64,000 nt of DNA from an uncultured Deferribacteres bacterium (GCA_964579725.1 CAZOHG010000013.1:544-64543); one strand, 5' to 3'; counted from the first letter of the stretch, positions 2,256 to 12,675 are shown. The notes: generated from the sequence alone by a model not told the origin. Numbers and translations are program-made.

Positions 2256-2867
2256 TTAGTCGTCACATTTGCTGTACGTGCAATCGGGATTAATACAGGT
2301 CTGACAGCCGTTTTCCACTTTGAGCGTTCGCTGGTTGCATTTGGGACAAATTTTGAGCATTTCCATGCCTTCCAGGCTTACCCCAACGGCCGGAGCGTCA
2401 AACTGGTGTTTGCCTTCAGACGCTTGCTGAGGAGCGTCCTTCAAACCAATGTCCACCAAAAAGCGCTCAATGACGTCGGCAATTTCACTGTAAAAAGACG
2501 GCACGTATTTGCCGTTTTTCAAATAGCCGCCGTTTGGGTCGTAAATGCTTTTCAATTCTTCCAAAATAAAACTGGGATCGGGCGACTTTCGAAAAATAGC
2601 CGAAATGAGCCGGGTTAGCACGGCGTACTCCGCCATTTTAGTCAGGTCTTTGCTGTTAATGAAGATTTCGATCGGACGTTTTCGGCCGTCTTCTTCCACA
2701 TAACCCAGCGTCACGTACACAGCGTGGCTGACGAATCCGCTTTTCAGCTTGTACACCTTTGCGTCCACAATTTCAGGACGTTTGGCCACAGCGTGAATGG
2801 AATCGGTCAGGGGTTTTTCTTCCTTAATTTCTTCAAATTTTCCGTCAAGGCTGTTAAGTTCTAACAT
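2256..2867 (-). CDS. Class II ribonucleotide reductase C-terminal subunit (NrdJb-like) with Zn-ribbon
   Basis: C-terminal CPKCNQRTLKVENGCQTCINPDCTYSKC (CxxC...CxxC) zinc ribbon typical of the NrdJ C-terminus. Own GGGAGG RBS about 7 nt before the ATG. Separated from the upstream large ORF by a TAG stop and an 18-nt gap. Confidence 0.6.
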   Translation of the reverse strand: MLELNSLDGKFEEIKEEKPLTDSIHAVAKRPEIVDAKVYKLKSGFVSHAVYVTLGYVEEDGRKRPIEIFINSKDLTKMAEYAVLTRLISAIFRKSPDPSFILEELKSIYDPNGGYLKNGKYVPSFYSEIADVIERFLVDIGLKDAPQQASEGKHQFDAPAVGVSLEGMEMLKICPKCNQRTLKVENGCQTCINPDCTYSKCDD

Positions 2868-2891
2868 GTACATTCCTCCCTAAGCAACAAA

Positions 2892-5393
2892 CTAATTGCT
2901 GGTTTCGTTCAATTGTAACGCGCCCGATTTATTTTTGAGCAGATGGTACACGGTGGAAAGGCGTCCGTTGGGAAGGCTGACCAAATCGTCCCCGCGAACG
3001 ACCACGCGGTCGCCGTTTCGCTGGTAGAGAAATTCCTTTTCTTTCAGGCGCTGAAATTCCGTACGCGCTTTTTCGTCTGCCGAAAGAATGGGATAGCGGC
3101 TTCCATCCCGGTAAATCGTGATCCCTTTGAGTCCGTTTTCCCAGGCGTGCAAATAGATGTTGGAAATCACCTCCGGTTCAATTTCCTCCGGCAGATTAAC
3201 GGTTGAGGAAATGCTATGATCAATGTATTTTTGGCAGACGCTTTGAATCTGCACCCGCTTGAAGGGATCGATCTCGTGAGCCGTGCGGAAAAAATAATCC
3301 GGTAGGATTTTTCGCAACTCCTCGGTGGAATGAATGTTTTGCGCTTTTTCCGTCAGACCCTTTTGGTCGAGGTAAGCTTGAACGGTTGAGTGAAAAACAC
3401 GGAAAAATTGGTTGCCGAAGGACTCCGCCCGCCGCGTGTAGTAGAGGGCAAAAATGGGTTCCACGCCGCTGGACACCCCCACGTAGTTTTTGTCACCAAT
3501 TGTGTAACTGAGGGCGATGTTGGAAATGGTTCCTGTGGGGGCAATGGACAACAGGGCAATGTTGCGCAAACCGTTTTTCTTAATGAGAGATTTGGTTTTG
3601 GCACTGAGTACTTCGTTAAAAAAGGGATTTTTTGAGTAGCTCTTGTAATCAAAAACAGGGGAGGGGCCCTTTTCGGCGGCCAGTTCGGCGGAAGCCTGGT
3701 AGGCTTTTTCTGCAATGCGGGCCATGACCTTGCGCATTGTGTCCAGGCCGGCTTCGCTGTCGTAGGGGATGCCCATCTGGTTCAACATGTCGGCAATGCC
3801 CATGACGCCGATGCCCAGGCGGCGGGTTTCGGAAGCGGCTTTGCGTTGTTTTTCAAGGGGATTGAGCTCTTCATTCCACGTGACCACATTGTCCAAGAAA
3901 CGAACGGCGTGAGCCACGGTAGCGTCCAGACGTTTCCAGTCCAGGCGAGCTTTGCCCGTAAAACCGTCCAGAACCAGCCGCGACAAATTAATAGACCCCA
4001 AATTACAGGCGCCGCCGTCTTCCAACGGTACTTCCGCACACGGGTTCGTGGCGCTGATCGGACGCCCCACGTAATTGGAGGGTGAATATTTGGCCATTTT
4101 TGACCAAAAGATCAACCCCGGTTCAGCGGTTTTGTAATTGCTTTCCACAAAGCGATCCCAGATCATGCGTGCCTTCACAAGACGACGAATTTCTCCGGTG
4201 GGTTTGGAGGCAAAATAGAGAAGAAAATCTCCCGAATAGCGCAGGGCCAAATCAAAGGGCTCGTCTTCAAGGGGCAAAACCAAGTCGCCAAAAACGTCGC
4301 GTTGATTCACATCGTTGAGAGAAGCTTCGGTTACGGAAATACCGAAAGTCGATTCCAAAAACTTGTGCGCCTGCTCGAATGTGTCAAAAGTTTCCAGCAG
4401 CTCGTAGTCGGAAATCTCTTTCGCGGGCATGGCGATCGAATAATGGGTCACATCCTCCAGGAAGGCTTCCTTGACCAGGGTTTTATTTTTCTTTTTGTAC
4501 AGCAAAAGTTTATTTTTCCCGTAGGTGTTTTGCTCTGCCACCGCACGCATAAATTCGTCGGAAGCCTTAATGCTGATGTTGGCGAAACGAATTTGCGTGT
4601 TCTCAACCACCTGTTTTTCGATTTCCTGAAGCTGCTTTTTGTCGAATTTGTTGGACCAAGTAAGTTGCTCGATAATTTGTTGGCTGATCCAGTTGGGTTT
4701 TTTCTTCACCTGAATGAATTCCAAAATGTCGGGATGTTTAATGTCAATGGTCATCATAAGAGCACCCCGACGGCCGCTCTGTCCGATCAGCCCCGTGGTC
4801 AGCGAAAATAAATCCATAAAAGAAACGGCACCGGTTGAGCGATCCGATGCGTTGTGCACCACGGAATCTTTGGGGCGCAGAATGGAGATGTCCACACCAA
4901 TTCCGCCGCCAAATGAATACGTACGGGCACATTCGTAGGCCGAGGCGTAAATCGATTCAATATTGTCCCCTTTAATGACGGTTGCAAAACAATTGGCCAA
5001 GGTTTTGAGCCGGTACAAATCGCCGGCGCCGGCAATGACACGCCCGCCGGGAATAAAAACACCGTCGTACAGGTCCCGATAAAAATAACTGGCCCATTCT
5101 TGCTGCTTTTCCTCCGTGGGTTCTACTGCCGCAATGGCAGCCGAAATTCTGACAAAACTGTCCTCTGGCCGCGTTTCGATGAAATTCCCGTCCAAATCTT
5201 TGAGAAAATACTTCTGCTTGTAAATGCTTTTGGCCAATTCATTTCCGCTCAAATAGTCGGTTGGGTGGACCGGAATTTCACGAACGGCTTGTTTTTTCTT
5301 TAAGAATTTGTACAGGTTTGCGTAGGTCTTCAACTGACTTTCCGGCACAAGGTGGGACAGCTTTCCCTTGTAAGCAAACATGGCATTAATCAT
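2892..5393 (-). CDS. nrdJ: Adenosylcobalamin-dependent (class II) ribonucleotide reductase, large catalytic subunit (NrdJa-like)
   Basis: NPCAEVPLEDGGACNLGSINLS active-site motif (the NPCGE...CNLGSINL of class II RNRs) and an NrdJ-type N-terminal region. Start chosen at MINAMFAYKG, which is preceded by AGGAGG. Confidence 0.8.
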   Translation of the reverse strand: MINAMFAYKGKLSHLVPESQLKTYANLYKFLKKKQAVREIPVHPTDYLSGNELAKSIYKQKYFLKDLDGNFIETRPEDSFVRISAAIAAVEPTEEKQQEWASYFYRDLYDGVFIPGGRVIAGAGDLYRLKTLANCFATVIKGDNIESIYASAYECARTYSFGGGIGVDISILRPKDSVVHNASDRSTGAVSFMDLFSLTTGLIGQSGRRGALMMTIDIKHPDILEFIQVKKKPNWISQQIIEQLTWSNKFDKKQLQEIEKQVVENTQIRFANISIKASDEFMRAVAEQNTYGKNKLLLYKKKNKTLVKEAFLEDVTHYSIAMPAKEISDYELLETFDTFEQAHKFLESTFGISVTEASLNDVNQRDVFGDLVLPLEDEPFDLALRYSGDFLLYFASKPTGEIRRLVKARMIWDRFVESNYKTAEPGLIFWSKMAKYSPSNYVGRPISATNPCAEVPLEDGGACNLGSINLSRLVLDGFTGKARLDWKRLDATVAHAVRFLDNVVTWNEELNPLEKQRKAASETRRLGIGVMGIADMLNQMGIPYDSEAGLDTMRKVMARIAEKAYQASAELAAEKGPSPVFDYKSYSKNPFFNEVLSAKTKSLIKKNGLRNIALLSIAPTGTISNIALSYTIGDKNYVGVSSGVEPIFALYYTRRAESFGNQFFRVFHSTVQAYLDQKGLTEKAQNIHSTEELRKILPDYFFRTAHEIDPFKRVQIQSVCQKYIDHSISSTVNLPEEIEPEVISNIYLHAWENGLKGITIYRDGSRYPILSADEKARTEFQRLKEKEFLYQRNGDRVVVRGDDLVSLPNGRLSTVYHLLKNKSGALQLNETSN

Positions 5394-5539
5394 GACACCT
5401 CCTGTGTTGAAACTGATGTTGTGTAGAAACCCCGGAGGATTGAGTTGCATTTGCAGATGGGCTTTTCCCCAAAAAAATCCTCTCAATCGCTCCAACACCC
5501 TTCCCGCGAAGGGGCCTGAGCATCGTGCCTGGCAGGTCT

Positions 5540-5695
5540 TCTGACTCGGGGCTCGTCCTCCGAAAAGCGCCTTCCCATACGCCTGGCGTACAGTGGCTCA
5601 TGGCTTTTCTTCGTCCTCCCTTACAGCGGCGGGGCCGTTCCGGATTTGCACCGGATTCCCTTTTCATCGTGAAAGAACCAGACCGACATCTTGTA
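5540..5695 (-). promoter_or_regulatory. Cobalamin (AdoCbl) riboswitch in the 5' leader of the RNR operon
   Basis: Read on the minus strand: AAAAGGGAAUCCGGUGCAAAUCCGGAACGGCCCCGCCGCUGUAAGGGAGGACG...GCCACUG...UGGGAAGGCG. This matches the conserved GGGAA / GGUGnnAAnnCC / CnGnCCCGCnnCUGUAAnGG / B12-box GCCACUG / GGGAAGGC elements of Rfam RF00174. About 150 nt of leader with a U-run lies before the AGGAGG-ATG. Confidence 0.8.
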
Positions 5696-6024
5696 GGCGG
5701 ATAAAAATATAACAACTAAATATAGTAAAGTCAAGATATTTTTCAAAAATAATTTTCGTCGTTTTTAGTTCTGAAGAGAAATAAGAATTTAGATTTGTCT
5801 GGTTTTTTTGACAGCCCTTTCGGGTGAAAAAAAAGATCACTTTCTGCCCGAAGAATGCCTCAAAAAACACCTGTTTGGGTAACGGAAGGACGGAAAAAGT
5901 GAATTTCCAAAACAGTGAAATTGGCAAAACTGCCCCTGTTGACACATGTTTATCTAATCTAAATTTTAGGAGTGCTGAATTTGCAAGGGCAATCGAGAAG
6001 AGGAAGAACTGCCGGGAAATAAGG

Positions 6025-11874: not shown

Positions 11875-11958
11875 GCCGAAGTGGCGGAACTGGTAGACGC
11901 GCTACGTTCAGGGCGTAGTGTCCGCACGGGCGTGGGGGTTCGAATCCCCCCTTCGGCA
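11875..11958 (+). tRNA. tRNA-Leu (anticodon CAG)
   Basis: GCCGAAG acceptor stem pairing with CTTCGGC; anticodon stem CTACG/CGTAG with loop TTCAGGG; long type-II variable arm; GGGGG-TTCGAAT-CCCCC T-arm; discriminator A. TTGACT-17-TAAATT promoter about 35 nt upstream. Confidence 0.9.
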
Positions 11959-12155
11959 CTTTTTTCCTCTTCCGACTTTCTGGCCGAAAATTTTCCACCA
12001 AAAGGAATAAATGACCCCAAACTGGGAAAAATTTGCCCAGTTTCTGCCTCCCCGTGTGGTATTTTGCCCCGCCCCGCCGCTACCACTAACTGTAATCACT
12101 TGTTTTTCCGAAAAATGAGCGAAAAAAAATACCCTCTTTGTTCCGAAAATGATTT

Positions 12156-12171
12156 TGGCACAAGACTTGCA
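12156..12171 (+). promoter_or_regulatory. Sigma-54 (-24/-12) promoter
   Basis: TGGCAC-aagac-TTGCA is an exact match to the TGGCAC-N5-TTGCW consensus, about 37 nt upstream of the receiver-gene ATG. Confidence 0.7.
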
Positions 12172-12207
12172 ATTGGGAGTTGTGTCTACCTGAAATTCGG
12201 AGCAAAA

Positions 12208-12675
12208 ATGAACAATATTTTGATTATTGACGATGAAGAAGACATCTTGGAGGTGCTCTCGGATGTCATTAAAGGCTGGGGCCATTTACCCATTGTGGCT
12301 CGGGACGGAAAGGACGGTCTGGAAAAATTTCAGAAAGTTCCGGTGGATTTGATCCTCAGCGACATTAAAATGCCCAATTTAGACGGGATCAGCCTGCTGG
12401 AACGCGTGCGCCGAAGCGACCGCAATATTCCGGTCATTTTGCTCACGGGCTACCCCTCGGTGGATTCGGCCGTCAGTGCCATGAAGGAAGGTGCCTTCGA
12501 TTACATTACCAAACCCGTGAATCTGGACGAACTGAAGATCAAAATCGAACGGGGGCTGGAGCGAGCCCGGTTGAAACAATCCATGAATTTTCTCAAAGGA
12601 GTCAACTGGTCTCTGCTAATTTCGATTCCCATTTGGTTGATTTTGGGCATTATTTTAGCCAAATTGCTGCACTAA
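12208..12675 (+). CDS. Single-domain response-regulator receiver (CheY-like) with a C-terminal transmembrane tail
   Basis: IIDDEEDILEVL...DLILSDIKMPNLDGISLLERVR...PVILLTGY...KEGAFDYITKP receiver motifs. Ends in the hydrophobic WSLLISIPIWLILGIILAKLLH. There is no output domain. Confidence 0.75.
   Translation: MNNILIIDDEEDILEVLSDVIKGWGHLPIVARDGKDGLEKFQKVPVDLILSDIKMPNLDGISLLERVRRSDRNIPVILLTGYPSVDSAVSAMKEGAFDYITKPVNLDELKIKIERGLERARLKQSMNFLKGVNWSLLISIPIWLILGIILAKLLH

Follow-up and report, generated by a model that had tools for sequence, protein, structure and literature searches.

Why would a cobalamin riboswitch control an enzyme that itself requires cobalamin? The question is raised by the leader of an nrdJ-like gene in a 64,000-nucleotide stretch of DNA from an uncultured Deferribacteres bacterium (GCA_964579725.1, CAZOHG010000013.1:544-64543), referred to below as the window and numbered from its first letter. 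Cobalamin riboswitches are textbook repressors of genes for B12 synthesis, B12 uptake, and B12-independent isozymes; a conserved cobalamin riboswitch on a B12-dependent ribonucleotide reductase (RNR) breaks this rule whichever sign the switch has. We find that the leader almost certainly carries a real cobalamin riboswitch acting in cis on a split nrdJ operon, nrdJab. As the best explanation of the system as a whole we favor, with modest confidence, a riboswitch that senses adenosylcobalamin (AdoCbl) and represses at the level of translation.

The presence of a cobalamin riboswitch on the minus strand, in the leader of nrdJ, had been proposed from the sequence alone (hereafter, the original prediction), together with an RF00174 search by which to check it. 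Run over the whole window with Rfam cmscan, this search returned one riboswitch match, to RF00174 (Cobalamin), covering model positions 1-189 of 189 untruncated (E = 1.5e-29) and scoring far above the gathering score of 31.5 bits. The conserved core of the aptamer (GGGAA..GGUG..CC, GCCACUG, GGGAAGGC, and AGACCUGCC) was found in the model alignment and in the sequence, with the B12 box and GGGAAGGC where they had been placed. The main parts of the aptamer are as follows.

5514..5696, minus strand: AdoCbl riboswitch aptamer, RF00174 (full-length covariance-model match, 120.1 bits)
5634-5630, minus strand: L5 loop CCCCG, inside the aptamer
5597-5591, minus strand: B12 box GCCACUG, read from the sequence
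5576-5569, minus strand: GGGAAGGC, read from the sequence

From the end of the aptamer to the ATG we measured 120 nt, shorter than the expression platform of about 150 nt first estimated. Homologous aptamers score 80 to 129 bits by Rfam in related loci (L081-L084, L087, L018, L019, and L030).

The genes downstream encode a class II RNR in two parts.

5398..5403, minus strand: Shine-Dalgarno (SD) sequence AGGAGG, 4 nt before the ATG (5393-5391) and invariant in the five leaders compared below
2892..5393, minus strand: nrdJa, class II RNR catalytic subunit, 833 aa (NrdJ_Z, Pfam, and a PDB relative)
2256..2873, minus strand: nrdJb, 205 aa, TSCPD domain (Pfam) and C-terminal Cys-rich zinc finger (CPKC...CQTC...C...C)

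NrdJa scores 514.1 bits on the NCBIfam equivalog model TIGR02504 (NrdJ_Z, cut-off 399.95) as against 260.9 bits on the class I model TIGR02506 (NrdE_NrdA), which is below the cut-off of 341 for that model. Pfam recognizes the RNR barrel and all-alpha domains, and the best PDB relative is 1xje, the NrdJ of Thermotoga maritima (296 bits; best class I chain, 133 bits). In the alignment with the T. maritima enzyme, residues N450-P-C452-x-E454, C463, and C135 fall on its catalytic thiyl Cys, Asn, and Glu and on the redox Cys pair of the ten-stranded barrel, and the C-terminal motif ITIYRDGS aligns with its TVYRDGS, at a place where class I RNRs have a Tyr-Tyr dyad. The second gene begins 18 nt downstream of nrdJa, and its product aligns to positions 582-758 of the 759 positions of the full-length NrdJ model PRK08665, including the CxxC...CxxC finger. 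Since the C-terminal part of NrdJ is encoded by this separate, following open reading frame (ORF), the locus is a split nrdJa/nrdJb operon, in agreement with the original prediction; the pair is present in all relatives examined. The proteins nearest to NrdJa are those of “bacterium BMS3Abin05/BMS3Bbin03” (78% identity) and Caldithrix abyssi (67%).

Judged by these sequence features, NrdJa is very probably a class II, AdoCbl-dependent enzyme. It is conceivable that the enzyme is class II by ancestry and does not use AdoCbl in this lineage, in which case the riboswitch would be a classical OFF switch on a B12-independent isozyme; the subfamily has an uncharacterized insertion of about 140 aa, and cobalamin-contacting residues form no simple sequence motif by which the point could be read off. 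We consider this highly improbable, in view of the family scores, the class II catalytic and C-terminal motifs, and the zinc-finger partner, and because no NrdB, NrdG, or ferritin-like gene was found in the 64-kb window. No riboswitch accompanies the orthologues (57 to 68% identity) of 76 other genomes, and the C. abyssi orthologue adjoins B12 genes, namely btuD and those for a cob(I)alamin adenosyltransferase and a cob(II)alamin reductase (PMC5317091). The proposal that this RNR is not B12-dependent at all, also raised at the outset, is thus poorly supported. The insertion occupies residues ~257-394 in the barrel when compared with T. maritima NrdJ, has no Pfam match, and is kept across the NrdJ family of about 830 aa in Calditrichota, Marinimicrobia, Bacteroidota, Woesearchaeota, and others.

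How often is a riboswitch found at such a gene? The 80 closest species-representative genome loci with this NrdJ family (L001-L080) were all scanned with Rfam at gathering thresholds, and a cobalamin riboswitch lies upstream of nrdJ in four of them. One (L001, BMS3Bbin03) belongs to the same small Calditrichota-like clade as the window; the others (L018, L019, and L030) are Bacteroidota metagenome-assembled genomes. The same scan found none at the nrdJ loci of Caldithrix/Calditrichia, Marinimicrobia, Zixibacteria, Kiritimatiellae, or archaea, nor was one found in a scan of three added Bacteroidota-like and other relatives (P0065, P0113, and P0086). Metagenomic relatives of the window protein (L081-L087; 92%, 83%, 82%, and 78% identity) all carry the riboswitch, with 110 to 129 bits; two loci at 80 to 82% identity stop 46 nt upstream of the gene and were left out of this judgement. 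Alongside the L018, L019, and L030 genomes, bins with the riboswitch include GCA_054007615.1, GCA_002898095.1, and GCA_002898015.1. When metagenome contigs were scanned for the invariant 17-mer GTGTTGGAGCGATTGAG, the sole real match was the contig of L083/L145; L122 and the other matches proved to be chance matches in coding DNA and were rejected as further leaders. Riboswitch and nrdJ are genuinely associated, and the association is kept within a small clade; it turns up again, on a very different expression platform, in a second lineage, and elsewhere it is rare.

In the literature, within the incomplete coverage of our search, no cobalamin riboswitch upstream of nrdJ is described, the usual RNR targets being nrdAB or nrdDG alongside NrdJ. 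A known aptamer is combined with an unusual target in a pairing that is rare and apparently unreported. Work by Rodionov from 2003 reportedly found that some B12 regulons take in enzymes of B12-dependent pathways, so the general idea would have precedent.

The genes upstream of the unit differ. In the BMS3-type relatives (L083/L084/L085/L086, 1490-2398, minus strand), the gene divergent from the riboswitch-nrdJ promoter encodes a 248- to 249-aa His_Phos_1 protein of the phosphoglycerate mutase or CobC-like family; the window and L081 instead have genes for an HtrA-like protease, an anti-sigma factor, and an extracytoplasmic function sigma factor upstream. These differing neighbors suggest that the riboswitch-nrdJab unit was moved or rearranged as a block.

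The promoter of nrdJab could be located by a consensus scan, and it holds a candidate operator for the RNR repressor NrdR.

5729..5734, minus strand: -35 hexamer TTGACT; TTGAC(T/A) is kept in L081-L084
5706..5711, minus strand: -10 hexamer TATATT, TG-extended, invariant in all five related leaders
5713..5728, minus strand: candidate NrdR box 1, TTACTATATTTAGTTG, which fills the -35/-10 spacer and is kept in L081-L084
5681..5696, minus strand: candidate NrdR box 2, CTACAAGATGTCGGTC, which is the first 16 nt of the riboswitch and includes the P1 5' strand

This sigma-70-like promoter (5734-5706, minus strand) has 10 of 12 consensus matches and a 17-nt spacer, and it ends ~10 nt before the aptamer, with a predicted transcription start near 5699, a few nucleotides ahead of it. 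Because the promoter lies just upstream of the aptamer, the element sits in the 5' untranslated region. NrdR operators are pairs of partially palindromic 16-bp boxes, each with key positions C4, A6, A8, T9, T11, and G13 and a canonical linker of 15 to 16 bp (PMC13584703). Both candidate boxes have all six key positions and are separated by 16 bp, in the canonical range, and the pair is kept at the same spacing in L081-L084 (32 bp from start to start in, e.g., L082 and L084). In a survey of 16-mers with at least 12 of 16 matches in the 400 nt upstream of nrdJ in L001-L080, NrdR-like boxes occurred at 1.6/kb as against 0.14/kb in coding sequence, an enrichment of ~11-fold; many lie at about -60 to -70 (e.g., ACACTAAATATAGTAT), and pairs ~32 bp apart are found in L025, L069, and L073. 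These motifs indicate that this NrdJ family is generally under NrdR control. Box 2 shares its DNA with the P1 5' strand, which would explain the invariance of ACAAGAUGUCGG. It thus appears that nrdJab is controlled both by a dNTP-sensing repressor, acting at a putative operator, and by a B12-sensing RNA.

What does the riboswitch do when it binds its ligand? The expression platform was compared in five distinct leaders (the window, L081, L082, L083, and L084), whose proteins are 78 to 92% identical. The invariant or near-invariant blocks are GCUCA, which lies directly 3' of P1 (P1 shares its last G with GCUC), UGUUGGAGCGAUUGAG, CUCRAUCCUCCG, and AACACAGGAGGU, together with ACUC(A/G)AUCCUCCG and AACACA(A)GGAGGU...AUG; the intervening spacers of ~40 and ~30 nt cannot be aligned. 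The following elements are predicted to take part in switching.

5489..5521, minus strand: P13 hairpin, 13 bp (RNAalifold, single-sequence folds, and direct reading of the leaders)
5482..5493, minus strand: switch segment GGAGCGAUUGAG (anti-anti-SD), invariant within UGUUGGAGCGAUUGAG in all five leaders
5434..5444, minus strand: CUCAAUCCUCC, consisting of the long-range strand CUCAAUC and the anti-SD (C)CUCC (5438-5434), near-invariant

P13 has a lower stem (U/C)GCUC:GAGCG, a middle part (G/A)(G/A)C:GUU (GGC:GUU in the window), and an upper stem that is CCCUUC:GAAGGG in the window and varies across the leaders as CCCUUC/GAAGGG, CCCCC/GGGGG, or CCCUC/GAGGG, closed by a GCGG or GAGG loop. The upper stem covaries (UUC/GAA, CCC/GGG, CUC/GAG) and in the middle GG is replaced by AA or AG opposite UU, which RNAalifold scores, over the five leaders, as one compensatory and several one-sided changes. 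The L13 loop GCGG (5507-5504) forms part of GCGGG (5507-5503), which complements CCCGC of L5/P5 (5633-5629), and L5-L13 is a candidate kissing loop; L018 and L030 have the same GCGG loop together with a CCCC(G) L5.

At the base of P13, GGAG(C) (5493-5490) can pair either with GCUC, to complete P13, or with CUCC of the anti-SD, and the two pairings are mutually exclusive. A GAUUGAG:CUCAAUC pairing is common to both states; the one A/G change in the CUCAAUCCUCC block keeps it (U-A to U-G), and in the GGAG:CUCC (5437-5434) state the long-range helix is lengthened to 11 bp with one bulged C. Given no prior model, RNAalifold recovered P13, the AUUGAG:CUC(A/G)AU helix, and the CCUCC:GGAGG pairing with the SD in five of five leaders. 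Ensembles constrained to the full P13 or to GGAG:CUCC differ by 0.1 to 2.8 kcal/mol in all five leaders, a near-equality of energies that a switch should show. With the full P13 in place, the SD of the window and of L081 is largely paired (probability of being unpaired, ~0.1 to 0.3); enforcing GGAG:CUCC makes it more accessible (up to 0.9). P13 (5521-5489) overlaps neither the anti-SD (5438-5434) nor the SD (5403-5398), only the partner of the anti-SD.

Some other features of the leaders were considered as switching elements and set aside. Alternative partners of the P1 3' strand (GGCAC:GUGUC in the window, GUACCG:CGGUAC in L084, and CUCC in L082) are not conserved across the five leaders. A local ACAC/GUGU hairpin that would present the SD occurs in four of the five leaders, is absent in L084, and does not depend on the state. 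Calculated SD accessibility does not serve as a clean discriminator, as it fits the model in the window and L081 only.

From these helices a three-step relay can be proposed. In the AdoCbl-bound state, the L5-L13 kissing loop and the adjacent P1 would hold the full P13 closed, including its base GCUC:GAGC, and so take GGAG out of the long-range helix; the freed anti-SD CUCC could then pair with the SD GGAGG and reduce NrdJ synthesis. In the ligand-free state, CUCC would displace GCUC and pair with GGAG, the GAUUGAG:CUCAAUC helix would reach 11 bp, and the SD would be free. We infer two of these steps, namely that ligand favors the full P13 and that sequestration of the SD by CUCC is strong enough to matter, and if both hold, the sign of the switch would be repressing. 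The predicted topology is of the repressing type: P13 and the sequestor can form together, whereas P13 and the anti-sequestor cannot.

That control runs through such a translational relay we regard as likely, and the repressing sign, which is read from predicted structures and by analogy, as nearly as likely. Several points weigh against this reading. The sequestor comprises just 4 to 5 bp and costs 2 to 4.7 kcal/mol to enforce relative to the full-P13 ensemble; ViennaRNA places the SD of L082 and L083 in a local hairpin loop in both states, and in L084 its accessibility is nearly unchanged between them. The competitor reaches no further than the 4 bp at the base of P13, at the opposite end from the kissing loop, so that the ligand signal would have to reach the base of P13 by coaxial stacking on P1 or by geometry, which is conjecture. 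The model is built on five distinct sequences in which most key pairs are invariant, hence uninformative, and its sign depends on secondary-structure prediction and analogy. Repression by B12 of an enzyme that requires B12 is also less intuitive than activation, especially alongside dNTP feedback through NrdR, and the 64-kb window, which bears on RNR repertoire and B12 supply only through nrdJab, contains no further RNR or B12 genes.

The weak or absent SD sequestration in the thermodynamic models of L082-L084 would also suit control at the level of the RNA, by Rho-dependent termination, mRNA decay, or some other coupling, in which the GGAG/CUCC exchange is not decisive and the sign cannot be read from the helices; U-rich tracts do lie within the loop of the long-range helix in four of the five leaders. 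This we think improbable. No intrinsic terminator was found when the minus-strand leader was scanned for one, the U-runs lack conserved GC hairpins ahead of them and do not occur in L081 (for which reasons a transcription-termination model of the window leader was rejected), and mutual pairing best accounts for the invariance of CCUCC, GGAG, and GCUC.

Terminators are found in the second lineage. In L018 and L030, a clear intrinsic terminator is predicted to form together with P1 and P13 in the minimum free energy (MFE) fold. The nascent L018 RNA is predicted to prefer an antiterminator, in which L13 and the P13 3' strand pair with the terminator 5' strand (-26.4 versus -21.3 kcal/mol with P13 enforced), a design that, by this folding, is like that of the repressing metE riboswitch. 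Both platforms on nrdJ look repressing in these models. The sharing of the P13 3' end with the anti-sequestor in the window, taken together with these Bacteroidota terminator platforms, is what favors a repressing translational switch, and the suggestion that the gene is shut down when the cofactor exceeds need is, of the options in the original prediction, the best fit to both. In L019 (L019:3465-4001) the distance from the aptamer to the nrdJ start, ~365 to 370 nt, is far longer than in the other examples, and a strong hairpin, CGCGAUAACC...GGUUAUCGCG, lies near the nrdJ start codon.

Could the same helices work in the opposite direction? In an ON switch, AdoCbl would disfavor the base of P13, with GCUCA held as a single-stranded J1/13 linker or absorbed by a fully zipped P1, so that GGAG stays with CUCC, the SD is free, and NrdJ is made only when its cofactor is present; without ligand, GCUC would capture GAGC, and the freed CUCC would mask the SD. 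The near iso-energetic pairings make either direction thermodynamically possible, and full-length MFE folds of the window and L082 do extend P1 by a G-C and an A-U pair into GCUC, followed by GGAG:CUCC. The biological logic is attractive, since NrdR derepresses at low dNTPs and an ON switch would avert futile synthesis of apo-enzyme, and a natural activating corrinoid riboswitch is known (PMC10653944). If true, no activating cobalamin riboswitch would have been found before on a cofactor-dependent enzyme, and the natural corrinoid riboswitches that activate, of whatever kind, would number two; this one would be layered on an NrdR operator, box 2 of which shares its DNA with the P1 strand of the riboswitch. 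We nevertheless regard an ON switch as unlikely. The P1 extension is just 2 bp past a bulge and about energy-neutral, whereas the P13 base is worth ~-7 kcal/mol by nearest-neighbour estimate, and ligand stabilizes P13, through the L5-L13 kissing loop, in every corrinoid riboswitch so far dissected (PMC10653944). P13 of the activating cobT riboswitch overlaps the terminator; that of the window overlaps neither the SD nor the anti-SD:SD helix and shares no nucleotides with the sequestor. At the same gene in L018 and L030, the platforms are of the terminator type and seem to repress. An ON-type platform, likewise offered at the outset, is accordingly not favored, there being no sequestor or terminator that P13 overlaps.

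A repressing translational switch could serve compensation. More apo-NrdJ would be made when AdoCbl is scarce, holding up the level of holo-enzyme and the output of dNTPs, and less when it is plentiful, an arrangement that would suit an organism relying on an enzyme that binds its cofactor weakly and would add to dNTP feedback through NrdR in the same direction. Such compensation would make most sense if NrdJ is the sole or main RNR of a B12 auxotroph; Caldithrix abyssi is a predicted B12 auxotroph (PMC5317091). If the sign is repressing, the locus would be a clear case of cofactor-level compensation in which the amount of an essential enzyme is inverse to the supply of its cofactor. The short leader, the proposed three-helix relay, and the overlap with the NrdR operator offer a compact system in which an RNA sensor of a cofactor and a protein sensor of dNTPs may meet at one promoter, and they mark a lineage (Calditrichota-like bins from hydrothermal or sediment metagenomes, and some Bacteroidota) that would have wired B12 directly into DNA precursor synthesis.

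A few further observations were made in the loci compared. In one metagenomic relative (L195:1-5511), nrdD (NRDD and ATP-cone domains), an overlapping nrdJ, a 74-aa ORF, and a class I-like alpha subunit with an ATP-cone bring three RNR classes together in a single cluster, which has no riboswitch. Class A bacterial RNase P RNA genes lie 2 to 3 kb downstream of nrdJ in several Marinimicrobia-type loci, in what looks like conserved synteny.

L020:8218-8580, L026:6741-7118, L032:8832-9203, L035:9170-9553: RNase P RNA
L039:5333-5705, L074:7364-7727, L034:5336-5548: RNase P RNA

Elsewhere in the window, an 84-nt tRNA with a long variable arm (11875-11958, plus strand; Rfam tRNA, 53.6 bits) overlaps the 5' end of a 264-aa ORF (11881-12675), whose response-regulator domain starts at residue 113; the overlap suggests that the true start of this ORF is probably further downstream.

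How does the element compare with known systems? Among the dissected corrinoid riboswitches, in the repressing Priestia megaterium metE riboswitch the 3' side of P13 is common to the antiterminator (PMC10653944). The window resembles it in that the P13 3' side is shared with an anti-element that keeps the gene on, and the L018 platform is a nearly exact match. The window differs from metE in that its output is an SD sequestor, not a terminator, that 4 of the 13 bp of P13 are contested, and that a long-range helix of 11 bp includes the anti-sequestor. In the one natural corrinoid riboswitch known to activate, that of Alkalihalobacillus halodurans cobT, it is the terminator that shares nucleotides with P13 (PMC10653944). 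Like the element studied here, it departs in its gene association from the rule of repressing synthesis and uptake, and it would be the precedent should the window element prove to be an ON switch; there, however, P13 and the terminator are exclusive, whereas in the window P13 can form alongside the sequestor and excludes the anti-sequestor. The cobT riboswitch also acts on transcription and responds best to cobinamide.

Translational control, an L5-L13 kissing loop, and masking of the ribosome-binding site (RBS) are what the window would have in common with the Escherichia coli btuB and env8 riboswitches. In those, the RBS hairpin is close to or within P13 (PMC10653944), while the SD of the window lies ~90 nt beyond P13 and would be reached by the three-step relay. 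On the side of the enzyme, NrdJa/NrdJb of Pseudomonas aeruginosa is likewise a class II RNR split into catalytic and C-terminal subunits, with NrdR boxes at the promoter; nrdJab there has no B12 riboswitch (PMC5962746), and the subfamily of the window has the extra insertion of ~140 aa. Cobalamin riboswitches are also known from Streptomyces nrdABS and delta-proteobacterial nrdDG, where the riboswitch turns off the B12-independent isozyme and NrdJ takes over (PMC545781; PMC3848588). Those leaders and that of the window share a full-length aptamer of the same family, the B12 box, L5/L13 complementarity, a place in the leader of an RNR operon, and probably the repressing sign, but the riboswitch of the window regulates the B12-dependent isozyme itself.

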